Below, piece after piece: positions 5,477 through 47,877 of a stretch of DNA of 57,371 nt (the stretch's first letter is position 1; the number at the start of each line of letters is the position of its first letter). The DNA is taken from IMG/VR virus record IMGVR_UViG_3300022201_000072, positions 1 through 57,371 of that record. One strand, written 5' to 3'. The notes beneath the pieces were generated by a model, which was not told where the DNA came from, did no database searches, and saw only the letters and a list, made by a program, of their open reading frames with translations. The translations under genes were made by a program, and so were the position numbers. The DNA is from a virus (Duplodnaviria > Caudoviricetes).

Positions 5477-5890
5477 ATGATGAAAAAAAAGGTATGTAAG
5501 CATTTTAACGGGGTCTATTCATCGGGCATGGAATATGGTGTTTGTGAAAAAGGCGTAGGCTACAGGCATCTTGTAGGCGGTGAAGATTTCGGTTGGTCGA
5601 AAAGAATCCCTTGTTTTAAAAAGCATGAGACAGAGGTTGCTTGTGAGATGTATTCTGAGCCGACAGAAGAAGATCTGATGAAAGCAGCGAAGGAAGAGGA
5701 AGAATGGATGGTCTGTTTTAAAAAGCAGGTTAACCTAATGTCTGATATTAAAAAAAATAATAAGTGGGGGGAAATCGGGGAAGACATTTGCCCCATCTGT
5801 AACAATAAAATTCATTGGTCAATTTCAAAATTTAACGGGCATCTTTATTTAGTATGCGAAACTAAAGGATGCATCTGTGTTATGGAGTAG
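5477..5890 (+). CDS. Cys/His-rich putative Zn-binding protein (paralog A)
   Basis: CKHFNG..CEKG..PCF..C..CPIC..NGH..CETKGC; paralog of 9048..9434. Confidence 0.8.
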   Translation: MMKKKVCKHFNGVYSSGMEYGVCEKGVGYRHLVGGEDFGWSKRIPCFKKHETEVACEMYSEPTEEDLMKAAKEEEEWMVCFKKQVNLMSDIKKNNKWGEIGEDICPICNNKIHWSISKFNGHLYLVCETKGCICVME

Positions 5891-8573: not shown

Positions 8574-8960
8574 ATGTTTGAACGCGCTACAAGATTAAAG
8601 CTCAGATTCGCGACAGGTAAAGGGTTAGCGACAATTGAGGATTTGTGGGACATCCCGCTCCTGGACAAATCAGGCGTTTCACTGGATGAAATTGCGAGAC
8701 GGCTAAACAGGGATGTTAGCATGGCAAGAGAAGAGAGTTTTGTCATTAAAAGAACAAATAACGACGATATCTTAGAATTGAAATTTTCGATTGTTAAACA
8801 CATCATTAAAGTGAAACTGGATGACGTCGAAAGAAAAGAAAATGCAGCCGCCAACAAAGCCAAAAAAGATAAGTTAATGGGAATCATCGCCGCCAAAGAA
8901 GAGGAAGGATTGAAAGAAAAGAGTCTCCCTGATCTGAAGAAAATGATAGAAGAATTGTAA
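8574..8960 (+). CDS. Conserved partner of the 674-aa protein (coiled-coil C-terminus)
   Basis: MFERATRLKLRF..GLATIEDLWDIPL; AGGAG RBS. Confidence 0.8.
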   Translation: MFERATRLKLRFATGKGLATIEDLWDIPLLDKSGVSLDEIARRLNRDVSMAREESFVIKRTNNDDILELKFSIVKHIIKVKLDDVERKENAAANKAKKDKLMGIIAAKEEEGLKEKSLPDLKKMIEEL

Positions 8961-8993
8961 AGCCCCTGGTTGTATTTCGATTTAATATTTAAA

Positions 8994-9027
8994 TATTTGA
9001 AGCGTTATATCTATAGCGCTTCAAATA
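8994..9027. repeat. 34-bp near-perfect palindrome
   Basis: TATTTGAAGCGTTATA-TC-TATAGCGCTTCAAATA (15/16 arm match). Confidence 0.85.
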
Positions 9028-9047
9028 CAAAAAATACAGGAGAACAG

Positions 9048-9434
9048 ATGATAAAAAAAGGCGTGTGTAAACACTACAACGGCGTGTACGGTGCAGGCAT
9101 GAAGCAAGGAACATGCGAAAAAGGCGTAATTTACAGAAGTCTTGTTGGCACTCCCTGTTTTAAAAAACACGATACCGATACTGTCTGTGAATTGTATTCA
9201 GAACCAACACAAAAAGATTTTGAGCGTCAAAAAGAAAAAGAAAAATTGTGGGAGCGTAATTTTGATAAGCTAATGATTGCGTTGTACTTTATAAAAAGTG
9301 AGCACAGTTGTGGCGATTCAGGCAAAATGAAATGTCCGGTATGCGATAAGACGCTGACTTGGTTAATATCCGGGTATAACGGTCACATCACGGCCCAATG
9401 CGAAACGAAAGGATGCATTTTCGTAATAGACTGA
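9048..9434 (+). CDS. Cys/His-rich putative Zn-binding protein (paralog B)
   Basis: Start reassigned to 9048 (AGGAG RBS); aligns end to end with 5477..5890. Confidence 0.8.
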   Translation: MIKKGVCKHYNGVYGAGMKQGTCEKGVIYRSLVGTPCFKKHDTDTVCELYSEPTQKDFERQKEKEKLWERNFDKLMIALYFIKSEHSCGDSGKMKCPVCDKTLTWLISGYNGHITAQCETKGCIFVID

Positions 9435-15025: not shown

Positions 15026-15253
15026 ATGAAAAGAGTAGTAACAGTTATTTTTAACGATACAAGCAGTGATTATTCATACTTCACCGACATCGACGGCCTT
15101 AAGAAAGGTGACTTGGTTGTTGTTCCAGTATCTAATTTTGCACACGATTTTGGCTATTCGATAGCGAAAATATACCACGTAGACCGCGTAAGACCGGAGG
15201 TGCAAGCCGCAGCGACAAAGTGGATAGTTCAAAAAGTGGATACGGATATATGA
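15026..15253 (+). CDS. Small beta-barrel (SH3/KOW-like) phage protein
   Basis: YSYFT..LKKGDLVVVP...ATKWIVQKVD pattern. Confidence 0.7.
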   Translation: MKRVVTVIFNDTSSDYSYFTDIDGLKKGDLVVVPVSNFAHDFGYSIAKIYHVDRVRPEVQAAATKWIVQKVDTDI

Positions 15254-16860
15254 GACAAAGACCAAAACTCTCATTAACACAGGCTTTAAATAAACCAACG
15301 TTTGTGTGGCGCGGAGGATTTGAAGATCGATTACTAGCTAAAAGTGCAGATTTCGAACACTGCTTAGCTCAACCGGGGGTATGGCGGACAAGGGACAAAT
15401 ATAAAGCGTTAAAACTGATAGACTACGCGGACGATTCAGCATTAAAAGTTCTTCTTCCGTTAGAAGAAAATGTAGCCGCTAGTCTTGAAATATTAGCGCC
15501 GTCTAACCGTGTCATATCCCCGGAAGGATGTTCTTATTTCCCGTTTCAAGAGTCCGGTATTGTACAAGCCAGTAATCGCAGAATATCACTATTAGCCGAC
15601 GATATGGGGACGGGTAAAACGGTTATGGCGAGCGGTATAAATAACTATTTGTTTTTTAAAAAATCGCTCGTTATCGGTCCGGCCTCCCTTAGATTGAAAT
15701 GGGTAAGGGAGCTACTGAAATGGGACATCAATTGTGATGAGGCTTATGCTATCCTGTACGGTAATCAGGAGCTAAAGAAAGGGGCCACTACCGTCATATC
15801 GTATAATTTAGCAGTCTCAATGATCGATCAGTTAAAAAGTGAACACTGGGACCATTTAATTTTGGACGAAGCCCACTATCTTAACAACCCGGAGACTGCT
15901 AGAACTATGTCGATACTAGGCAGAATGGACGATAACGGGGATTTTAAAGGCGGTCTTATCGATAACGCCGAAAAAGTCACGCTTTTAACAGGTACCCCTA
16001 TCACCAATCGCGCACACGAATCGTTTTTCATGCTTAGAGCCGTAGCGCCTGAAGTACTGGGGCGTAAATATATAAATTACGGCGCGTATCTCCAAAGATT
16101 CTGCAAATATTATGTTGGAGATCACGGCATAGCGGTAACGGGTAGCAAGAACGACTGGGAGTTGTACAATATGTTGAGGGGTAGCGGTTTCATGACTCGC
16201 AGATTAAAGAAAGCTGTTTTACCGCAATTGCCGGAAAAATTACACAGCCTAGTTGTTTTTCCTGCAGACAAAACGATTATGAGAATAATTGAAAAGGAGC
16301 AACCGTTCGACCCGGAGGAAATTATAAAATTAGGAGAGGGCGAAAACTCCTATCCAGCGCTCCCTGAATTGCGTAGAGAAATGGGAGAGGCAAAAGTCCC
16401 ACTTGTTCATGAATACGTCAATATGCTGCTTAAAACAACGAATAAAGTTATCATTGGGGCAATCCATAAAAATGTAGTTAGAGCGTTATATGAGGCTCTA
16501 ATCGACCACAACCCGGCCGTTATCGTAGGGGCTACGCCCCCGGTAAAAAGACAGTTGGAAGTAGATAGGTTTCAAGACGACGAAAGCTGCCGTATTTTCA
16601 TAGGAAACTTACAAGCTGCCGGTGAAGGGCTGGACCTTACTGCAAGTAGCGAAGTTGTTATTTCAGAGCCTGACTGGGTGCCTTTAAAAAATAATCAATT
16701 CATTGATCGTTCGCACAGAATCGGACAGACCGATAAAGTGAACGTTCATTATCTGGTCGTTGAGAATTCACTTGACGCCTACATCCTCAGTGTCGCTCTG
16801 TATAAAGCTCGCGATATTGATAAAATTTTAGATGGAGATATACGTGAAAATTACAATTGA
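15250..16860 (+). CDS. SNF2-family (HARP-like) helicase
   Basis: LLADDMGTGKT, LILDEAH, LLTGTP, GEGLDLT, QFIDRSHRIGQ; start 15250 by ATGA coupling. Confidence 0.93.
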   Translation: MRQRPKLSLTQALNKPTFVWRGGFEDRLLAKSADFEHCLAQPGVWRTRDKYKALKLIDYADDSALKVLLPLEENVAASLEILAPSNRVISPEGCSYFPFQESGIVQASNRRISLLADDMGTGKTVMASGINNYLFFKKSLVIGPASLRLKWVRELLKWDINCDEAYAILYGNQELKKGATTVISYNLAVSMIDQLKSEHWDHLILDEAHYLNNPETARTMSILGRMDDNGDFKGGLIDNAEKVTLLTGTPITNRAHESFFMLRAVAPEVLGRKYINYGAYLQRFCKYYVGDHGIAVTGSKNDWELYNMLRGSGFMTRRLKKAVLPQLPEKLHSLVVFPADKTIMRIIEKEQPFDPEEIIKLGEGENSYPALPELRREMGEAKVPLVHEYVNMLLKTTNKVIIGAIHKNVVRALYEALIDHNPAVIVGATPPVKRQLEVDRFQDDESCRIFIGNLQAAGEGLDLTASSEVVISEPDWVPLKNNQFIDRSHRIGQTDKVNVHYLVVENSLDAYILSVALYKARDIDKILDGDIRENYN

Positions 16861-17635
16861 AATAAACAGCGTTGAAGATGCTGAAGAAGTGAAAAAAACT
16901 ATTCAACAATTGGCCTCGAATGACGGTCAAACATCACATCTTGAGGGCGCGACTGTGACGTTTAAATCTGAGGCTACTAATACCGGTGATTTAAGTATAA
17001 ACCTCTTTGACGAAGATTTAAATATCGACAGTGATTTCACCGGCAGATCCGGCGAGAGTCAAAAATTACACAGTGACGATTTCGGGAAATCAGACGACGA
17101 AACGCCGAAAGAAAAACGCGCCAGGATTAAAGCTGAGCTGAAAAGTCTCGGTATTGATGTTGATAGCAGTAAAGCCGCTACTGATAAGCTTGAAGCAAGG
17201 CTTGCAAAAAAATTAGCCGATCTGAAAAAAGAACCTGTTGAAACTCCTGTTGGAACAAAACCGGGCGCTGACGAAAATGAAATAACAGATCTGCTTGACG
17301 AACTGGACAGCGCCTCTGAAAAAGAAAAAGTGACAACTGAATCTGTTCGAGAAAAGTGTAAAATCTATCTTAAACTCTCAAAAGTAGAAAAGTTGTATAA
17401 ACTTCTTGAAGATTACGGCGGCGATAGAAAACTGTCAGTGATTGAAACTAAAGGGCTTTTAAACACAGTAGACGACGCCTTGAACGTTCATATAGCTGGA
17501 TTGCAGTTTCGAGAAAAACACGGCGCCGACAAGACAAAAGAAATACTAATGCTTGTCGGTAAAAAACCATCTTTATGGGATGTAGACATCTCTACTCACG
17601 AGCTTTTGACAAAAGCTTTCCAAGAGGGACTATAG
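16844..17635 (+). CDS. Acidic/Lys-rich protein of the replication module
   Basis: GGAG RBS then GTG at 16844; position typical upstream of DUF2800. Confidence 0.7.
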   Translation: MKITIEINSVEDAEEVKKTIQQLASNDGQTSHLEGATVTFKSEATNTGDLSINLFDEDLNIDSDFTGRSGESQKLHSDDFGKSDDETPKEKRARIKAELKSLGIDVDSSKAATDKLEARLAKKLADLKKEPVETPVGTKPGADENEITDLLDELDSASEKEKVTTESVREKCKIYLKLSKVEKLYKLLEDYGGDRKLSVIETKGLLNTVDDALNVHIAGLQFREKHGADKTKEILMLVGKKPSLWDVDISTHELLTKAFQEGL

Positions 17636-18834
17636 TGTTGCATTCTAAATTGGGGGCGTCGTCCATGTATCGTTGGGCGGCTTGCCCCGGCTCCGTCGCC
17701 AAATGTAGGGATATCGAATCAGTAACGTCTATATACGCGCAAGAAGGGACGGACGCCCATAAATTGGGGGAATTAGCGTTGATTGAAAAAAAATCCCCTA
17801 GCCATTGGATAGGAAAAACTATTGGCAAGACGAAAATAACAAGCGACATAGCTAATCACGTAGCATCTTATGTGGCTACAATCCATCTTGATTGGCCTTT
17901 AGAAGACCGAGAACACATTCGTCTTGATGTTGAGAAGAAGTTTAATTTGGATTGGTTGATACCGGGTGCTGGTTTGTTCGGCACAAACGACGCTTGCCTC
18001 TGTGAACCGTTTGGTAAGTTAAGATTATACGATCTTAAATTCGGTTATGGAATCGTAGAGGTGGTGAATAACCCACAGTTACTTTATTATGCTACGGGTG
18101 CATTAGGGAAAGACGATTATGATGAGATTGAAATGATAATCGTTCAACCACGTGCAAGTCATCCAGAAGGCCCTATTAGACGCTGGACAGTTACTCAAGA
18201 GTATGTAATGGATTGGGTTCAGAAAGTATTAGTTCCGGCAATAGAGGCGACTCAACAACTAGACGCACCTTTAATACCTGGAGATCACTGCACATATTGT
18301 CCGGCAAAAGAAAAGATGTTATGTGATACTCAGAAAAAACATGTATTTAGCATCGCTAAGTCTGATTTTTCATCTGTTTCAAACCCGAAAATCGCAAAAC
18401 CGGAAGACTTGACAAATGAAGAACTGAACAAGTCAATTCTAAAATTAAAACTCGTAGAATCTACGCTTAAAAGCTGGAAAGAGTATGCGTTAAGTAGGAT
18501 GAAATCGGGCGGCGTACTTCCAGATTTTAAGCTGGTTGAGACCTCCCCGCGCCGCAAATGGGTGGATGAAGATTTTGTTGCTAAGACTTGTGAAAGTGCC
18601 ATAGGTGACGACGCATATAATCCGAAACAACTTAAATCGCCCAATCAAATGGAAACGGCATTTGCTCAGCACGGGCATAAGCCACACGCAAGAAAAGAGA
18701 TGTTGGGACACTTATGGAAGAAACCAAAAGGTGTGTTGGATATCGCCCCGTTGTCAGATAAGAGACAGGCCGTAAAAGCGCCGATTAGTTCAGATTTTAC
18801 GGACGTTGAAGACGTTAACGACTTTTTAAATTAG
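17635..18834 (+). CDS. DUF2800 Cas4-like PD-(D/E)XK exonuclease
   Basis: HSKLGASSMYRWAACPGS, EGTDAH, GTND, DLKFG, NPQLLYYA, GDHCTYCPA. Confidence 0.88.
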   Translation: MLHSKLGASSMYRWAACPGSVAKCRDIESVTSIYAQEGTDAHKLGELALIEKKSPSHWIGKTIGKTKITSDIANHVASYVATIHLDWPLEDREHIRLDVEKKFNLDWLIPGAGLFGTNDACLCEPFGKLRLYDLKFGYGIVEVVNNPQLLYYATGALGKDDYDEIEMIIVQPRASHPEGPIRRWTVTQEYVMDWVQKVLVPAIEATQQLDAPLIPGDHCTYCPAKEKMLCDTQKKHVFSIAKSDFSSVSNPKIAKPEDLTNEELNKSILKLKLVESTLKSWKEYALSRMKSGGVLPDFKLVETSPRRKWVDEDFVAKTCESAIGDDAYNPKQLKSPNQMETAFAQHGHKPHARKEMLGHLWKKPKGVLDIAPLSDKRQAVKAPISSDFTDVEDVNDFLN

Positions 18835-18846
18835 GAGGAAAAATAC

Positions 18847-19032
18847 ATGGAATTAATAAGCTGTAAGGCGTGTGGTGTAGTGCTTGATAAACAATCTCTT
18901 AGTTTTCCTGAAATTTGGGACGCTGAAGGTGATTTAATCCAAGAATACGCGATATGGGACGGTGATTCTCACGTGGCCGTCGTCCCCTGTCCTGTATGTA
19001 AAACGATTATACGAAAAGACGCCATGTTTTAA
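18847..19032 (+). CDS. Small Zn-ribbon protein
   Basis: CKACG...CPVC; AGGAGG RBS. Confidence 0.75.
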   Translation: MELISCKACGVVLDKQSLSFPEIWDAEGDLIQEYAIWDGDSHVAVVPCPVCKTIIRKDAMF

Positions 19033-19058
19033 ACTAATACAAACAATGGAGAAAAAAA

Positions 19059-19700
19059 ATGAGTGATCAAGTTTACGGTGAAAAAATTTTAACACCGCCT
19101 TTCCGGGTTATTTTTCCTACGCTTTTTGATGTGGATGCGGAACGGGAACAAAAGAAAAACGGAAAAGAATACAAGGAATACAGTGTAAACGCGCTATTTA
19201 ATAAAAGCGCTGATCTTAAACCGATGTTAAAAAGTGTTCACGAAGTAGCGACCGAAAAGTGGCGAAGCGTTCCGAAAAATCTTAAAAATCCATTCAAAAA
19301 CGGCAGCAAAGAAAAGGATCTGGACAAGTATCCATATTATGAAAACACAATTTATATTCGTTTTTCTTCTTACGATCAGCCGGGAATCGTCGACGGAAAA
19401 ATGGAGCCGGTTATAGATAAATCTCAAGTATATTCTGGATGTTGGGCAAGAGCTACAGTGGTGGCAAAAACTTATGGCGGGTCCGGGACCGGGTATCAAC
19501 CAGGGGTGTCTTTCAAATTACAGAATATTCAAATTTTGCCGAAAAGTTTCGTTGAACAAGAGTTAGGGCTAGAGGTAGAGGATAGCGCGTTAACCGGTCG
19601 GAGATCGTCACCGAATGAAGATTTCGACGGCATTGATTTTGAAGCTGATGACCCCGCAAATTATGAAACTGTTGAAGACGACATTGGATACGACTTTTAA
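19059..19700 (+). CDS. DUF2815 (T7 gp2.5-like) single-stranded DNA-binding protein
   Basis: NPFKNG, PGIVD, VYSGCWARA, GVSFKLQNIQ; acidic tail ending in F; lies between DUF2800 and polA. Confidence 0.88.
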   Translation: MSDQVYGEKILTPPFRVIFPTLFDVDAEREQKKNGKEYKEYSVNALFNKSADLKPMLKSVHEVATEKWRSVPKNLKNPFKNGSKEKDLDKYPYYENTIYIRFSSYDQPGIVDGKMEPVIDKSQVYSGCWARATVVAKTYGGSGTGYQPGVSFKLQNIQILPKSFVEQELGLEVEDSALTGRRSSPNEDFDGIDFEADDPANYETVEDDIGYDF

Positions 19701-19755
19701 GACGATTTTACTGAAGATGAAATCCCTTATTAATCTATAATTTTTATAAACGTTC

Positions 19756-19784
19756 CGTATTAACCGGTATATCCGGTTAATACG
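19756..19784. terminator. Perfect 12-bp inverted repeat between SSB and polymerase
   Basis: CGTATTAACCGG-tatat-CCGGTTAATACG. Confidence 0.6.
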
Positions 19785-19800
19785 TCAAATAAATTAATAA

Positions 19801-22011
19801 ATGGGAACTAAACTAACTATCGATTTTGAAACTCGTAGTGAATGTGATCTACGTAAATCAGGAGCCTGGAAGTACTCGGAACACCCAAGTACAGAGGTTA
19901 TATGTATGGCTATGAAGGTTAATGATAGACCCCCGGTTATCTGGATCAATCAAGCTATCGTTAAAGAGGCGTTCAGTTTGCCTATAATCTCAACAGAAAG
20001 TGCGCAACAGCTGCTATTGACAGCGGGTATTATCGAAGCGCATAACGCAGAGTTTGAACAAGCAGTTTACATAAACGTGATGATAAAAAAATACGATTGG
20101 CCTGAATTAATAGATAAAAAAGAAACCTCAGAATGGAGATGTTCGGCAGCTAAAGCGGCGGCTCATGCATTACCAAGGTCATTAGACGGGGCTTGTAAAG
20201 CGCTTAATCTTTCGGTTCAGAAAGATATGGAGGGCCACAAGATAATGATGAGACTTTGTAAACCTAAAAAACCGTCTAAAAAAGATCCCAGTATATGGGA
20301 CGAAGACCCGGAAAAGTTTCGTAAACTGCTAAAGTATTGCTTGAGAGACGTTGAATCAGAATATGCCATATCTGAAAGTCTGAGAGGTCTTGACCCGATA
20401 GAACAAAGAATATGGGATATCGATCAAAAAATAAACGCCCGTGGTATATATGTAGATCTTGACGGCATCGCAAATATAGTGCGTATGGTGGAACATTTTG
20501 AAAGTGAACTATCAACCGAAGCTTACGAGATAACAGAACACGCTATTAATAGCCCCAGACAAGTAAAAGCGTTTAGAGAATGGCTGAAATCAGAAGGTTT
20601 AGAAGCGCCAAATTTACAAAAACAGACTGTAACAGATCTGCTAGCTAAAGAGTTACCGGGAGACTTAAACGATAAAGGCGGTAAAGTCAGACGAATGCTA
20701 GAGATACGTCAACGACTGTCAAAAAGCTCCACTTCTAAATTTAAAAAGTTTTTAGCTATGGTGTGCAGTGACGGCAGAGTGAGGGGAACAATGATGTATC
20801 ACGGCGCTAGTACTGGCCGTTGGTCCGGGAAAGGAATACAGCCCCAAAACATGCCAAGGGGGACGTATAAAGATTCCGAAGACTGTTTACAATTCGTAGC
20901 TAAAAACGAATACGGCGTAATCGATGCGCTCTATGACTCTCCTGCAATAGCCGCCTCAAAGTTAATAAGGGCTGTTATAATGGCGGCTCCGGGGCACGAT
21001 CTTATATGTGCGGATTATAAGGGAATAGAGATGCGCGTTCTTGCTTGGCTGGCTGGATCTACTTGGCGGCTGAAAGCTATTCGAGAAAATATCGATTTAT
21101 ACAAGGTAGCTGCTATGAATACTTACGGGGTCGAATATGACGACGTGACCGCCGAACAAAGGCAAGTCGGGAAAGTAGAAGAATTAGCATTAGGCTACCA
21201 AGGTTCATGGCCGGCATTTTCATCCATGGCAAAAAATTATGGCGTTAAACCTCCTGACGACGTAGAGCTGGCTAAAGAGCCGGACCTTTTACATGAGGGC
21301 GCTCATTATACCGAACGGTTTTTAGAGGCTCATAAAGAAGAAACAAAAGAGTACAATAGAGATTGGAGACATAACGGCAGAACTTTGTCCGAAACAGACG
21401 CCAAGTTTAAAAAATGGGCCGCCCCCATTGTCAAATCGTGGAGAGATAACAACCCAGAAATAAAACAAATGTGGTGGGATTTTGAAGGGGCGGCACTAGA
21501 AGCGGTTAAGTCCGGCAGAACGCAGCGTGTAGGTAAGATTTTATTCGGAGTAAAAAGAAACTTTTTATGGATGCGGTTACCATCTGGTAGAAGATTAGCT
21601 TATTATGATCCAGAAATAAAATCAAAAATAATGCCGTGGAAAAAGATAGAAACCGATCCTGATACCGGTGAAGAGATAGAGGTTGATGTGTACAGAGATG
21701 TTGTAACGTATATGGGAATCGATTCTAAATCGAATTCAAAAAAATGGGAAAGAATCTCATCACACGGGGGCAAATGGGTTGAAAATGCTGTTTCAGGCAT
21801 ATCAAGAGACATAATGGCTGAATCAATGCCAAGGCTCGAAAAAGCTAAATACAGCATAATAATGCATGTTCATGACGAGATTTTAAGCGAAGTCCCAGAA
21901 AACTTCGGTTCACTAGAAGCTTTTGAAAATCTAATGGCCACGCCTCCGATTTGGGCGAAAGATTGTCCTATAGAAGCGGAAGGATGGAGAGGAAAAAGGT
22001 ATAGAAAATGA
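19801..22011 (+). CDS. Family A DNA polymerase (3'-5' exonuclease + polymerase; Leu at the 762-equivalent position)
   Basis: IDFET, AHNAEFE, YCLRDV, TGRWSG, DYKGIEMR, RQVGKVEELALGY, HVHDEI. Confidence 0.95.
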   Translation: MGTKLTIDFETRSECDLRKSGAWKYSEHPSTEVICMAMKVNDRPPVIWINQAIVKEAFSLPIISTESAQQLLLTAGIIEAHNAEFEQAVYINVMIKKYDWPELIDKKETSEWRCSAAKAAAHALPRSLDGACKALNLSVQKDMEGHKIMMRLCKPKKPSKKDPSIWDEDPEKFRKLLKYCLRDVESEYAISESLRGLDPIEQRIWDIDQKINARGIYVDLDGIANIVRMVEHFESELSTEAYEITEHAINSPRQVKAFREWLKSEGLEAPNLQKQTVTDLLAKELPGDLNDKGGKVRRMLEIRQRLSKSSTSKFKKFLAMVCSDGRVRGTMMYHGASTGRWSGKGIQPQNMPRGTYKDSEDCLQFVAKNEYGVIDALYDSPAIAASKLIRAVIMAAPGHDLICADYKGIEMRVLAWLAGSTWRLKAIRENIDLYKVAAMNTYGVEYDDVTAEQRQVGKVEELALGYQGSWPAFSSMAKNYGVKPPDDVELAKEPDLLHEGAHYTERFLEAHKEETKEYNRDWRHNGRTLSETDAKFKKWAAPIVKSWRDNNPEIKQMWWDFEGAALEAVKSGRTQRVGKILFGVKRNFLWMRLPSGRRLAYYDPEIKSKIMPWKKIETDPDTGEEIEVDVYRDVVTYMGIDSKSNSKKWERISSHGGKWVENAVSGISRDIMAESMPRLEKAKYSIIMHVHDEILSEVPENFGSLEAFENLMATPPIWAKDCPIEAEGWRGKRYRK

Positions 22012-22301
22012 ATTTATCAATAGAAATAGAAGCGTATAGCAAGACTTGCCCGCACGTAATGGAGGATGGAGTCGTACAAAACTGCTTTACTTCTAGCTGT
22101 ATGGGCTGGATTGAAGTATACCCAAGAATCAAGATGGAAAACCATTCTGGCGCTTATGAAAATCTCGTTAGCCATGCTGTCAAAAGGAAATGGTGTGCGC
22201 AAGCTCCGAGAAAAGAAGGGCCTGACAACAGTTCAGGTTTTGTAGTATTGGATGCCGTCGGCTATTGCGGAAAAAACAACTATCAAGCAGGTCAAAAATG
22301 A
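22008..22301 (+). CDS. Cys-containing hypothetical protein
   Basis: KTCP..C..SCMGW...GYCG; ATGA coupling at both ends. Confidence 0.7.
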   Translation: MNLSIEIEAYSKTCPHVMEDGVVQNCFTSSCMGWIEVYPRIKMENHSGAYENLVSHAVKRKWCAQAPRKEGPDNSSGFVVLDAVGYCGKNNYQAGQK

Positions 22302-22597
22302 AAATATCTAAAATAAATGAAAAGAAATTATCAGAAGATCTAATTTCTATAAGTTATGACGTGGGCCCGGATCATTCTGGCTATTGGGAGATAGATCGAG
22401 ATATGCTAAATTTGATCAGAACGTTTCAAGAAAGCGACGGAACATATATGTGGCAACCTGGACTAGGTCTTTACGAGTATAATACGTTATTAGGAAGGCC
22501 CATAAAAAAAATTGATAAAGGTATCTACCTTGTGTATATAACTAAATTCGGCACGAAACACAAGAAACGATTTGATTTAATAAAATATTTTAGATAG
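22298..22597 (+). CDS. 99-aa protein containing an HK97 major-capsid-like segment
   Basis: IRTFQESDGTYMWQPGLG..NTLLGRP aligns with MCP LRTLQGSDGHYIWQSSLG..NLIAGDP. Confidence 0.75.
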   Translation: MKISKINEKKLSEDLISISYDVGPDHSGYWEIDRDMLNLIRTFQESDGTYMWQPGLGLYEYNTLLGRPIKKIDKGIYLVYITKFGTKHKKRFDLIKYFR

Positions 22598-29792: not shown

Positions 29793-30470
29793 CTAAATTT
29801 GAATTATGTTAAATGGGGGTGAAGGAGTTGATGTTATATCGGGAACGTTGAATGTTGTAGATCCGTCACCTACACCGTATGTTGTCCCGATAATTGAAAA
29901 CAAATTACCATAAATCGTTCTGCTAACAGCATTACCGTTGCACTGAAGATACCCCGGCGGAATCGATGTTTGTCCCAACATTATACCCCCTGTGCCGGGT
30001 GCCGGAATGGAAGGATTAACGATTTCGAATCTGTCTGTTGATAGCTTATAAACAGCTAATATTTGTTTGTCTGCAATTATCTGATTTGTAGCCAGTGCAT
30101 TCCCATCTGGGAGCTTTATATCTTTAACACCGATCGAATCAACATTTATTGTAGAGGCGCCCGTGTTGGTATTTGCAGCTTTAAACGAAACAAGCATATT
30201 GTCATAATACTTAGACACCTTTCTAAGACTGTCGATTGATGATATGACGTAAGCATTTGCTGTTCCTAAATCCTCATAAGACGCGCCGGCATTAGCGTAT
30301 GATGACATTGTTTTACCAAGCATGTCCAAGTCTGTGTTTGGGCCGCCTGCTGGATCTAATGTTAAACCGGCACTTTCAACTGCATTCTCCCATTCAGAAT
30401 TTAAGGCGTTAAAATCACCTGCAGGAAGGGTGTCACCGACACCGTCTGTTTTATCCGATATATTTCTCAT
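29793..30470 (-). CDS. Tail fibre with collar domain (paralog 3, no propeller)
   Basis: NTGASTINVD; PPGYLQCNGNAVSRTIYGNLFSIIGTTYGVGDGSTTFNVPD. Confidence 0.88.
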   Translation of the reverse strand: MRNISDKTDGVGDTLPAGDFNALNSEWENAVESAGLTLDPAGGPNTDLDMLGKTMSSYANAGASYEDLGTANAYVISSIDSLRKVSKYYDNMLVSFKAANTNTGASTINVDSIGVKDIKLPDGNALATNQIIADKQILAVYKLSTDRFEIVNPSIPAPGTGGIMLGQTSIPPGYLQCNGNAVSRTIYGNLFSIIGTTYGVGDGSTTFNVPDITSTPSPPFNIIQI

Positions 30471-31903
30471 AGTTTATATTTAATTATGTATTGCACTGTT
30501 GAATCTTGGCTTTTTAAAATTCCACCCGTGTCCTCTGCAATCCAGAATTCACCTTTAACCTCATCAACCGCCATACCCCTGTAATTAGAGCTGTTAATGA
30601 TAAGAATCTCGAAAGAACTTTCACCTCTTAGCGTTTTATAAACATCGCTATTTGACTCTTTGGCCCATAAATCCCCGCTAGAAATATTCAACGCAAGAAA
30701 AAACCAATTCTTAACAGGGGCCGACACGTCTGTCCAAGTTCCTAAGCCCCCTGTATTTTTGTAAATTTTATCTGTGGTTAGCTCACAAGCATAAACGTCT
30801 TGAGTGTTTGGGTTCACTATTATATCGGTCCACTGGACGCTTGGCGCAGCCACATCTTGAACCCAAGACCCGGCGCCGCTAGCATTTTTGTATATTTTTG
30901 AAGTAGAAAGAGAGCACACCCAAACATCCCCATTTGAAGCGTCTACGGTAATCCCATACCACGAATCGGAAGGCGCGGTTGCGTCTATTACCCAAACACC
31001 GAGACCGCCTGCATTTTTATAAATATCGCCGCTTGATGAGCAAGCCCATACGTCGCCATTAGAAGAGTTTACTGTAATGCCCTGCCAGGATGTAGCCGGT
31101 GCTGACGTATCAGTCCAAACACCTAAGCCCCCTGCATTTTTGTAAATATCATCTGTTATTTCGTCGCATGCATAAACGTCACCGGTTGATGAATCAACTG
31201 CTATCGCCCTCCATCCCGTAGATGGCGCCCCAGAATCAGTTAATGCAATGTCAGAAAAATTTAACCACGGAAGATTAAACGTTGTAGATCCGTCACCGAC
31301 ACCGTAACTTGTTCCAATAACTGCAAATAGATCGGCATACGTAGTTCTGCTAACCGCTGATCCATCGCAATATAAGTACCCATTCGGAAGTGCTTTAATT
31401 GCTTGAACTGACACAGCCCCAACCGGATCAGTTAACGCTGCTTCCTCTTTGTTTACTAATTCAAACCTTGTTTGCGATAAATTATATATTGCAAAATAAT
31501 AATTGCCTGAAATAATGTCGTCTGGTTCAAGTGCTGACCCGTCAGGTCTTGTAAAGCTCCTTGCTCCAATTGAATTAACATTTATTGTTGATGGCCCTGT
31601 GTTGGAATTACCCGCTTTAAAAACAACCATCATATTGTTAGAATATGTTACCACGGGTTTTAAATTCGTAGTTATTGACAATATATAGGCGTCAGCTGTG
31701 CCGGAGTCTTGATAAACAAGACCTGCATTGGCATAAGCTGCTATAGATTGGCTCAGCATAAATAAGTTAACGTCGGGCCCTCCTTCTGAATCAAGTGTAA
31801 AATCAGCACTAGTTACAATATTCTGTGATTCATTTTTTATCGAATTAAATTCAGCAGAATTCAATTCAGAAGTGCCGTCGATTTTTGTTGCAAGATCTCT
31901 CAT
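30467..31903 (-). CDS. Tail fibre with collar domain and beta-propeller-like repeats (paralog 2)
   Basis: Collar motif followed by ~44-aa IYKNAGGLGVW repeats. Confidence 0.88.
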   Translation of the reverse strand: MRDLATKIDGTSELNSAEFNSIKNESQNIVTSADFTLDSEGGPDVNLFMLSQSIAAYANAGLVYQDSGTADAYILSITTNLKPVVTYSNNMMVVFKAGNSNTGPSTINVNSIGARSFTRPDGSALEPDDIISGNYYFAIYNLSQTRFELVNKEEAALTDPVGAVSVQAIKALPNGYLYCDGSAVSRTTYADLFAVIGTSYGVGDGSTTFNLPWLNFSDIALTDSGAPSTGWRAIAVDSSTGDVYACDEITDDIYKNAGGLGVWTDTSAPATSWQGITVNSSNGDVWACSSSGDIYKNAGGLGVWVIDATAPSDSWYGITVDASNGDVWVCSLSTSKIYKNASGAGSWVQDVAAPSVQWTDIIVNPNTQDVYACELTTDKIYKNTGGLGTWTDVSAPVKNWFFLALNISSGDLWAKESNSDVYKTLRGESSFEILIINSSNYRGMAVDEVKGEFWIAEDTGGILKSQDSTVQYIIKYKL

Positions 31904-31919
31904 TCTTATTCCTTATGTC

Positions 31920-33362
31920 TTATGTCTTAATGTAAAGAGCCACTCCTTTTTGCAAGAAAACATTAGCGTTATCGCAATACATTATATCGGCTGTTGCAGA
32001 ATTAACAGCAACTTCATTTGTAGCACCAACAATAGCCGGTATTTCTTTGATTTCAATCCAATTCGATGTTCCGGTTATTTTTTTGAAAATAGTATCAGCA
32101 TTTTCATCAAGAGCAAATATATCCCCGGTCGTTTCATTCACCGCTATGCTTATCCATCCCCTGCTTGGGGCGCTTGTGTCTGTGGCCCAAACTCCAAGAC
32201 CCCCAGCATTTTTATAAATAAGCCCTCCTGACTCACAGGCCCAAACATCGCCGCTAAATGAATCAACAGAAATATCCCTCCATGATTCGAATGGAACAGT
32301 TTGTGAAGTCCATACACCGAGACCTCCAGCGTTTTTATAGATTAACGTGCCTGATTCTGGAATCGCCCAAATATCTTGATTACTGACATTGACAGTGATT
32401 CCAGTCCAACTTGCCACGGGTGCAGATTGGTCAACCCATGAGCCTACACCGCCTGCGTTTTTATAAATTTGATTTAATACATTTGAGCATATCCATACAT
32501 CATTGTTAGATGCATCGACAGTTACATCATTCCAGGATGAGTTTGGTGCTGATTGATCAATAAAAGAAGCTGTTCCGCCTGCACTCTTGTAAATCGATCC
32601 GTTTGGAAAACTAGAAGTTGATATCCAAACATCGCTATTTGAAGAGTTCACAGAAAGACCGCGTATTGCCGTTGCAGGAGATGTCAAGCTGTTATATTCT
32701 GCTTGGCTTTGCAGTGATGAAATAGCTCTAGGCAGATTGAACGTTGTTGAGCCGTCACCAACGCCGTAAGTTGTCCCGATAGCGGCAAATAGGTCAGAAT
32801 AAACAGTTCTACTAACTGCTGATCCATCGCATAATAGATACCCATTTGAATCCGCATTAAAAGCTAAGTGAATCATAGTTCCGGTAGGTGAACCAAAACT
32901 ATTACCTTTCACTAATTCAAATCGGTCGTCGGTTTCATTAAAGCTCAATATTGCGTATGTATCGGCTAATAAAGAATCAGGGACAAGACTATTTCCATTT
33001 TTATCTGTTATTGATTTTACAGCAAGTGAGTTGACCGTTACAGTAGACGCCCCTGTGTTAGTGTTTCCAATTTTGAAATAAACTGTCATTCCATTAAAAT
33101 AGTCTTCAATATACTCAAGACTTCCTGTCAATTCTAAAACATACGCGTTAGCTGCACCAGTATCCGTATACACCCTAGCACAACTAGAGTATATAGCCGC
33201 AGATTTCGCCAACATGTTTAAATCTGTATCGGGGCCGATAGCGGGGTCCAGCGCTTGCCCTGAAGATGTAACAGCATTTTCACCTTCTTCATTTTGCGCG
33301 TTGAAATCATCAGCTGATAGAGTATCACCTGAATTAGACGTTTTAAGCGGTAAACTTCTCAT
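31920..33362 (-). CDS. Tail fibre with collar domain and beta-propeller-like repeats (paralog 1)
   Basis: Same architecture as paralog 2. Confidence 0.88.
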   Translation of the reverse strand: MRSLPLKTSNSGDTLSADDFNAQNEEGENAVTSSGQALDPAIGPDTDLNMLAKSAAIYSSCARVYTDTGAANAYVLELTGSLEYIEDYFNGMTVYFKIGNTNTGASTVTVNSLAVKSITDKNGNSLVPDSLLADTYAILSFNETDDRFELVKGNSFGSPTGTMIHLAFNADSNGYLLCDGSAVSRTVYSDLFAAIGTTYGVGDGSTTFNLPRAISSLQSQAEYNSLTSPATAIRGLSVNSSNSDVWISTSSFPNGSIYKSAGGTASFIDQSAPNSSWNDVTVDASNNDVWICSNVLNQIYKNAGGVGSWVDQSAPVASWTGITVNVSNQDIWAIPESGTLIYKNAGGLGVWTSQTVPFESWRDISVDSFSGDVWACESGGLIYKNAGGLGVWATDTSAPSRGWISIAVNETTGDIFALDENADTIFKKITGTSNWIEIKEIPAIVGATNEVAVNSATADIMYCDNANVFLQKGVALYIKT

Positions 33363-46671: not shown

Positions 46672-47877
46672 TTACGCTTTTATCTTTAATGCAACAAAAG
46701 CTTCAGGAAGAACGACTTGACCGGTATTATACCGATAAAAGGTCATCTCAATTATGGCCTTTCTCTTCTGTGAGTAATCGTCTCTTATCACAGTCATACC
46801 GGTTCTATCTATAACGGTATACCCCCGCATAAAATCGGCATAAATTATAGGCAGCGCTCCAACGGCTATGCTAGGCATATCTTGCATAAGAATATACGGG
46901 TCGCCAGCAATTAAATTGGGTGCAGAGGGGCCCAAACTAGATTGCCATATATAATGTCCGTCTGACCCTTGCAAAGTCCGAAGAAAAGCCAAAGTTTGTC
47001 TATTAAAAGCAAACATTGGATTTTGGCCAACTTTCAATTGACCCGTAAGCAATAGAAGATCGTTTCCTTCAACCACGCCCGACCCGATAGTGTCAACGGC
47101 GCCTGCAACAATAGAGGCGTTTACAAGAAAACCTTCCGGCTGCTTAGATCCGGTCCCCAGTACAAATTTATTCCCTTCCTTTTGCGCGAAAGCTAAAGCG
47201 TTATCTGAATTAATTTCAGCTTCCAGAGGGAACTCCGAATCTCCTAATTGATCGGCTGTATAACCGACGGTATTTGTCAATCTATACGCCGTCATTTGCT
47301 CATTGGCGTATACACTTTGACTGTCCTGGCCTTCTTCGGCCTCACCCTCGTAAAACGCCTCTGGAATGGTTGTTCTTACTGCCATCTCGAAAGTCTTTTT
47401 TGATACGGTCTTTACCCTAGATACTTGACGAACTGGAGAGATTTCGATAATCTCTTTCAGCATTACGCTATCCATTTCAGTTGTGGTTAGATATCCACCG
47501 GTTGGACCGCTATCCATTCGCAACACCTTTCTTTCTTCAAGCGCAAGCTCTTCGTGGCCAAAACGCATCGCCTTCATTAACGACTTGTATTCTGGGGTGT
47601 CTTTATAGCTGCCAATACCGCGTTGGGCGCTTTTAGCGACTACAAGCTCTAAAGATTCAATCCTTTCTTTTAACTCAATGGCTTTCTTTTTTTCTTCAGT
47701 TAATTCCGACACAATGGAAGCGCTCTTTTTTTCGTTCGCTTCCAACGTTGCTGAAACTCGGTCAACAGCCTCTTTGTAATCATTTGACTCTTTTCCGTAA
47801 TTCTCGAATTTTACTCTCAATTCATCGACCGCCGCTTTTACATCCTCCGGCTGTACGTTTTTAGATTCATCTCCCAT
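46672..47877 (-). CDS. HK97-fold major capsid protein with delta domain
   Basis: N-terminal coiled coil, GGYL, FVLGTGSKQPEG, SDGHYIWQ, ADFMRGY. Confidence 0.95.
   Translation of the reverse strand: MGDESKNVQPEDVKAAVDELRVKFENYGKESNDYKEAVDRVSATLEANEKKSASIVSELTEEKKKAIELKERIESLELVVAKSAQRGIGSYKDTPEYKSLMKAMRFGHEELALEERKVLRMDSGPTGGYLTTTEMDSVMLKEIIEISPVRQVSRVKTVSKKTFEMAVRTTIPEAFYEGEAEEGQDSQSVYANEQMTAYRLTNTVGYTADQLGDSEFPLEAEINSDNALAFAQKEGNKFVLGTGSKQPEGFLVNASIVAGAVDTIGSGVVEGNDLLLLTGQLKVGQNPMFAFNRQTLAFLRTLQGSDGHYIWQSSLGPSAPNLIAGDPYILMQDMPSIAVGALPIIYADFMRGYTVIDRTGMTVIRDDYSQKRKAIIEMTFYRYNTGQVVLPEAFVALKIKA

Follow-up and report, generated by a model that had tools for sequence, protein, structure and literature searches.

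A stop codon between the two motifs of a phage SSB tail, with a bacterial SSB-like tip in frame behind it

The SSB encoded by ORF6 of phage Enc34 has been described as an OB-type core followed by an unstructured acidic C-terminal segment; it prefers ssDNA in a gel-shift assay and is about 15% identical to gp2.5 (PMC5686142). In T7, the gp2.5 tail is reported to bind the T7 polymerase, with the terminal Phe being required (PMC12339929), whereas E. coli SSB is given the C-terminal tip DFDDDIPF (PMC3936761). A preliminary description of the locus studied here had set DDDIPF-like bacterial tails against the acidic-Phe tails of gp2.5-type proteins, a background that is sound as these two sources present it (PMC3936761, PMC12339929). 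Here we compare with these systems a phage SSB gene whose frame continues, behind the stop codon, into a peptide of the bacterial type.

The window, meaning the whole stretch of DNA that was analyzed (57,371 nt), is a linear virus record in IMG/VR, estimated to be 69% complete. Comparison of 39 ORFs with PHROGs identified structural genes of a contractile-tail phage (sheath, baseplate, tape measure, major head, portal, and terminase), and the SSB gene lies within a replication module (Table 1). The family A DNA polymerase encoded downstream is the likely partner of the SSB tail. The C-terminus of the DUF2800 exonuclease (18790-18834) reads ...SSDFTDVEDVNDFLN, an acidic-aromatic tail similar to the ends of DFL[NS] type seen in SSB relatives (e.g., P0015, ..DSDFLN) and to the SSB's own DF-x-DDFTED. 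T7 gp2.5 and gp4 have a docking code in common, and by analogy one may also be common to this phage's replication proteins.

We noted several other features of the window. Directly downstream of the polymerase gene, a 110-aa ORF (22265-22597, plus strand) matches the middle of Phage_capsid PF05065 (positions 144-207 of 280, E 4.2e-7), and a full-length major head gene is present on the opposite strand at 46672-47877; by this partial match, the 110-aa ORF looks like a capsid-gene fragment where the replication and structural modules meet. The ORFs at 5477-5890 and 8970-9434 (both on the plus strand) are probably paralogs because they end in near-identical peptides (ETKGCICVME and ETKGCIFVID). 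The latter is in frame with the upstream gene at 8574-8960, separated from it by one TAA and two codons, and the two look like separate genes because the phrog_2018 match of the upstream one is complete. On the minus strand, 29793-33362 holds three successive ORFs (224, 477, and 479 aa) with a common tail-collar/tail-fibre N-terminal region (phrog_9116, phrog_19618), which by annotation are tandem receptor-binding paralogs.

The SSB matches PF10991 (Enc34_ssDNA-bd, formerly DUF2815) with an E-value of 5.4e-23 and 82 bits against a cutoff of 26, and phrog_112 ("Gp2.5-like ssDNA binding and annealing protein") with an E-value of 5.3e-30. Residues 3-162 also match PDB 4klk_A ("Phage-related protein DUF2815") at the sequence level, with an E-value of 2.4e-9. 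By these profile matches, the gene encodes a phage SSB of the Enc34/T7 gp2.5 type. In most relatives, the best-matching stretches correspond to approximately residues 8-160 of the SSB. The translated tail contains F189, which is invariant in our alignments A1-A3, followed by a DDPxNY motif and an internal DDIGYDF motif. Counted on the sequence, 13 of the last 30 residues are D or E, and the protein ends in YDF.

Table 1. Coordinates of the SSB gene, its neighbors, and features at its 3′ end
Feature	Position	Strand	Basis or remark
SNF2-type helicase	15220-16860	+	replication module
267-aa protein	16832-17635	+	replication module
DUF2800 PD-(D/E)XK exonuclease	17575-18834	+	replication module
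61-aa ORF	18847-19032	+	zinc-ribbon matches, all sub-threshold
SSB, 213 aa	19059-19700	+	Enc34/T7 gp2.5-type, standard code
Predicted OB-fold core, residues 9-161	19083..19541	+	extent of PF10991 match
Translated acidic tail, residues 184-213, SPNEDFDGIDFEADDPANYETVEDDIGYDF	19608..19697	+	alignment with relatives
TAA inside tail, next base G	19698..19700	+	proposed: GAA (Glu) or TTA (Leu) altered at one base
Ten in-frame codons DDFTEDEIPY, bacterial-SSB-like tip without start codon	19701..19730	+	frame reading; relatives' ends
Second in-frame TAA, probable ancestral stop	19731..19733	+	frame reading
Predicted helix, post-stop end 19723-19734 (TC CCT TAT TAA T) with 19793-19806, over polymerase AUG 19801	19723..19806	+	predicted folds; weak, unreplicated
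Perfect 12-bp hairpin, CGTATTAACCGG / CCGGTTAATACG, 5-nt loop	19756..19784	+	inverted repeat I1
Family A DNA polymerase, 736 aa	19801-22011	+	PF00476 E 5.4e-25; phrog_17 E 1.3e-104

The last residues encoded by the SSB ORF (19059..19700) are ...NYETVEDDIGYDF; their final codon, TTT, occupies 19695-19697 and the TAA 19698-19700. Past this stop, the same frame reads GAC GAT TTT ACT GAA GAT GAA ATC CCT TAT TAA, encoding DDFTEDEIPY and then a stop, with a second TTT at 19707-19709. Re-reading the sequence confirmed the starting observation that the gene ends EDDIGYDF-TAA and continues in frame as DDFTEDEIPY-TAA. A bacterial SSB-Ct tip was not found at the end of the translated protein, as EDEIPY lies behind the stop and the standard code gives a YDF end. 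The post-stop stretch is not a separate ORF because it contains no ATG, GTG, or TTG. Among the 70 window ORFs of at least 100 aa, only the SSB has five D/E in its first ten post-stop codons (the other 69 have three at most), and because this acidic content is unique, we do not regard the peptide as a product of chance.

Reassignment of TAA was ruled out, as TAA is the commonest stop in the window (TAA 30, TGA 24, and TAG 16 among the 70 ORFs) and itself ends the extension. The C-TTT-TAA-G context (19695-19740) permits +1 re-pairing of the Phe-tRNA, and the +1 frame is open for 14 codons (KTILLKMKSLINL) within a 41-aa ORF at 19615-19740; no stimulator was seen there. A +1 frameshift at U-UUU-AAG is conceivable, but it would give ...YDF-KTILLKMKSLINL, which is basic/hydrophobic and not an acidic tip, with no RF2-like Shine-Dalgarno (SD) sequence upstream.

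Only one public run (X1) matches the window DNA, and as it may be the source sample, we do not treat it as independent; no RNA runs matching the window were found. The Logan contig of this run, a separate assembly, is identical to the window over 19300-20100 at a word depth of 37.5, with the caveat that minority alleles are invisible in contigs. Because the second assembly is identical at this depth, TAA represents the read consensus, not an isolated error. An error that conceals a sense codon at 19698-19700, a concern raised in the preliminary description, therefore does not explain the stop at the level of contig consensus.

No relative more than 50% identical to the SSB was present in any collection searched. 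Pattern searches of viral contigs returned eight matches for the SSB, none of them confirmed, and no matches for PolA. The best identity was 37% in a tblastn search against 50,697 phage records, 47% (core only) in a full HMMER scan of 1.84 billion representatives, and 44% over the best segment in a metagenome scan, and a word-indexed search of 5.8 billion proteins matched the SSB to itself only. Alignment A1, and A2 on metagenomes, were too divergent for pattern scans; related loci were instead retrieved with A2 from viral contigs and with A3, a smaller alignment, from metagenomes.

To describe how members of this family end, we used the best 149 representatives from the 1.84-billion-protein scan. 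Ten of the 149 end in xP[FYW], as bacterial SSBs do (e.g., DDIPF, DELPF, and DSDLPF), and ten end in [DE][FYW], as in gp2.5 (e.g., NDDF, DDDF, and SEDF). Another aromatic end is found in 21, a hydrophobic residue at position -2 in 67, and the remaining 41 have other ends. From these counts, YDF and EIPY are both ordinary ends for the family. Relative P0022 ends SDEIPY, its last five residues being those of the post-stop peptide, and two of the related loci that we fetched end ..DEYDF (L015) and ..DGYEF (L068). The claim that the peptide behind the stop is a bacterial-type SSB tip is thus borne out, since relatives' ends identify it as a genuine tip of this family.

We then read the window tail through, with X in place of the stop, and aligned it with 23 relatives. 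The extended tail aligns over its whole length, comprising DDPxNY, an internal acidic-aromatic motif, a short linker, and a terminal tip that in two-motif relatives follows the pattern [DE][DE][ILV]P[FYW]. Opposite the internal DDIGYDF of the window stand GDWM (P0010), DDDWL (P0022), GFDFL (P0072), EDDIF (P0117), and DDF (P0062), and opposite EDEIPY the same relatives have DDIPS, DEIPY, AIPW, DDIPF, and EVPF, respectively. P0042 ends naturally at the internal motif (..DDDDDWM) and, judged by the alignment, is a natural analogue of the short form encoded in the window. The alignment and P0042 together indicate that a two-motif tail is native to the family and that the window stop falls exactly between the motifs.

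To look for the same arrangement elsewhere, 160 related SSB loci were fetched (80 from viral contigs and 80 from metagenomes), the gene was placed by tblastn, and the frame was read past the stop. Four loci ran off contig ends, leaving 156 parsed loci with 139 distinct combinations of tail and post-stop sequence. Among the 156, no locus has a tip-like end or reaches four D/E within 12 codons after the stop, so a stranded tip is not a family trait.

We propose, with a probability of about 0.6, that a single nonsense change in a modular two-motif tail produced a 213-aa SSB with a usable gp2.5-like YDF end and a ten-codon remnant. The ancestral tail would have consisted of the internal acidic-aromatic motif (DDIGYDF), a short acidic linker, and a terminal bacterial-SSB-like tip (EDEIPY), and a one-base change from GAA or TTA to TAA would have put a stop directly behind the internal motif. 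The genome would now make the 213-aa SSB ending ...YDF, with the ten post-stop codons persisting as an untranslated, still undecayed remnant. As a ..YDF-like end is a natural terminus in other family members, the 213-aa protein probably still works, a judgment drawn from family end-types. Truncation of a longer tail, and at a recent date, is the most likely direction and timing of the change.

The codon that was lost may be read in two ways. The column of the stop holds M or L in relatives in the 23-relative alignment, which suggests a change from TTA (Leu) to TAA. On the other hand, repeat D3 pairs TTGAAGACGA (19672-19681) with TTTAAGACGA (19696-19705) at 9 of 10 positions, the sole mismatch being the first base of the stop, and P0126 carries DDFEDDFEDD; together, these suggest a change from GAA (Glu). 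Both codons are common in the 25 window genes (GAA 471 and TTA 314 uses). The tail DNA (19635-19733) has a degenerate 24-nt (8-codon) periodicity, with repeat pairs at 19635/19659 and 19672/19696, and tandem duplication of acidic-aromatic modules may have lengthened the tail.

Downstream of the second stop, the spacer contains a hairpin (19756-19784) found nowhere else in the window, located 17 nt upstream of where the polymerase gene starts and with predicted pair probabilities of approximately 1.0. Because it lacks a T-run, it is not a typical intrinsic terminator; it may serve as a translational operator or as a processing site. A terminator scan of 18700-20000 found no terminator-like sites, and the same interval contains three promoter-like sites against 2.9 expected.

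Folding predicted a nested RNA structure at 19676-19855 that links the SSB gene's 3′ end with polymerase codons 1-18 and covers the AUG, with an outer helix between 19676-19706 and polymerase codons 7-18; the fold z-scores are -2.1 (151 nt) and -2.7 (281 nt). Within the 370 nt upstream of the polymerase start, no segment pairs better with it than the second-stop segment (-10.1 kcal/mol duplex); the first-stop segment ranks 153rd of 266. Across the record, 40 of 11,470 windows pair as well as the second-stop segment. Among the 36 relatives whose spacer is 40 nt or longer, only 2 had the best partner of the polymerase start at the SSB stop, and we dropped pairing between SSB end and polymerase start as a family rule on this count. 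The polymerase gene has no SD-like motif, which is not unusual because 10 of 25 window genes lack one. As a model, the helix over the polymerase start is weak evidence for recoding, and such pairing would be equally expected if the ORF had ended at 19733 until recently.

Two features sit less comfortably with a recent relic. The remnant is intact (its ten codons are free of stops and frameshifts and end in a canonical tip), which would fit continued selection through translation equally well, and the post-stop end, as the best predicted partner of the polymerase start, would give a role to ribosomes that reach the second stop. Both would be accommodated by programmed recoding, in which a few ribosomes pass the UAA, either through near-cognate readthrough or because the Phe-tRNA hops from TTT at 19695-19697 to TTT at 19707-19709, to yield a major ..YDF form and a minor ..EDEIPY form with different partners. 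We consider this improbable, even with the intact tip, the -10.1 kcal/mol pairing of the last extension codons within 370 nt, and the z-scores of -2.1 (151 nt) and -2.7 (281 nt) in its favor. Matched codons do flank the stop, as the preliminary description had pointed out, and according to a 2016 review by Atkins and colleagues, synthetic stop-hops of such design work in E. coli; the same review, however, states that no natural in-frame case is known (PMC5009743). The match itself is not beyond chance: TTT makes up 320 of 474 Phe codons in the 25 window genes, so two Phe codons would both be TTT about 46% of the time, and the repeated Asp-Phe motif leads to the same expectation. Nine nucleotides separate the take-off and landing codons, whereas in classic synthetic stop-hops they directly abut the stop. 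The MFE fold has no local take-off hairpin in 19690-19722 (19707-19722 is unpaired, and the take-off codon lies only within the long-range helix), and no GGAGG-like or SD-like motif precedes the landing codon in 19698-19706. The stop is UAA-G, and UAA, which both release factors recognize, is described as the least read-through stop in bacteria (PMC5289835). An ARAGORN search of the window, from a record about 69% complete, found only tRNA-Met and no suppressor. The absence of the tip behind the stop in all 156 relatives, the failure of the polymerase-start pairing as a family feature (2/36), and the 40 equally good windows of 11,470 also count against recoding, and the earlier suggestion that readthrough or hopping yields two SSB isoforms finds no positive support. 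A more elaborate version, in which stop-hopping or UAA readthrough makes an SSB with a host-type tip and the same rare ribosomes melt the helix over the polymerase start, setting both the isoform and a low polymerase-to-SSB ratio, is modeled on the predicted fold and would be less probable again.

The stop could also be a variant of the sampled lineage (a defective or neutral mutant, or the consensus of a mixed population), with functional relatives making a 224-aa two-motif protein and the 213-aa form being impaired. This is unlikely, yet it is the alternative that we would take most seriously: the sequence comes from one sample (one run) and an incomplete linear contig (estimated completeness 69%), contigs hide minority alleles, and the capsid-gene fragment beside the polymerase gene suggests some gene debris. 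Against it, TAA is the consensus in two assemblies at a depth of 37.5, which puts the truncated allele in the majority at the least; the short end resembles relatives' natural termini, and no other split gene was found among the 39 ORFs compared with PHROGs. The preliminary description had offered a relic of recent tail replacement as its second option. A relic does fit better than two isoforms, but replacement is the poorer fit, as the alignment points to truncation of a native two-motif tail. Insertion of a foreign or duplicated segment carrying a new tip and stop ahead of the old tip (through a homing-nuclease footprint or slippage) would be in keeping with the degenerate direct repeats at 24-nt and 39-nt spacing in the tail DNA and with the 12-mers encoding EDDI and EDEI, which are 83% alike. 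We nevertheless judge it very unlikely, given that the 100-nt gap between SSB and polymerase holds no nuclease or other ORF, that likeness between the two halves was confined to the 12-nt motif with no longer duplication found on reading the sequence, and that the internal motif aligns with the native internal motifs of relatives. Finally, ten stop-free codons are common, and many of the 70 ORFs have at least ten open post-stop codons; that an unrelated open stretch happens to resemble an SSB tip has a negligible probability all the same, since the acidic content is unique among the 70 ORFs and the 156 related loci and the end matches a family tip exactly.

If the favored reading, a nonsense change in a two-motif tail, is true, the locus captures one way in which SSB docking tips can change. 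In a tail of repeated acidic-aromatic modules, a stop after any module would leave a new valid-looking tip, and such modularity may partly account for the variety of ends seen in the family. For annotation and readthrough screens, the case is a caution: a motif can lie intact in an extension behind a stop, and this by itself is no evidence of recoding. If recoding were true instead, a tailed-phage replication gene would here show either UAA readthrough or a natural in-frame stop-hop, none of the latter being known according to the 2016 review (PMC5009743).

Compared with known systems, the locus is like synthetic stop-hops and T4 gene 60 bypassing in that its take-off and landing codons are identical (both TTT) and a stop occupies the A site, but it has a 9-nt gap, and no stem-loop, SD, or nascent-peptide stimulator was identified. 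The Qbeta A1 protein likewise has a C-terminal extension in frame behind a stop; its readthrough uses a leaky UGA, whereas the stop here is UAA-G and the extension only ten codons long. Read through, YDF-x-DDFTEDEIPY follows the E. coli SSB-Ct in having an acidic run and then Ile-Pro-aromatic at the extreme end, with Tyr in place of Phe; it differs in that the peptide sits behind a stop, and also in that the protein is no tetrameric SSB of the PF00436 type. T7 gp2.5 is only distantly related in sequence, and binding of PolA by the window tail is putative, but the window protein likewise ends in acidic residues and Asp-Phe. The closest comparison is with Enc34 ORF6 and the PF10991 family. The window SSB has at most 47% core identity to any known member, and a stop breaks its tail and leaves a second tip stranded beyond, an arrangement absent from the 156 related loci; in common with the family, it has the PF10991 profile and 4klk_A match, a predicted OB-type core with an acidic C-terminal segment, and a neighborhood of the DUF2800 nuclease, SSB, PolA type.
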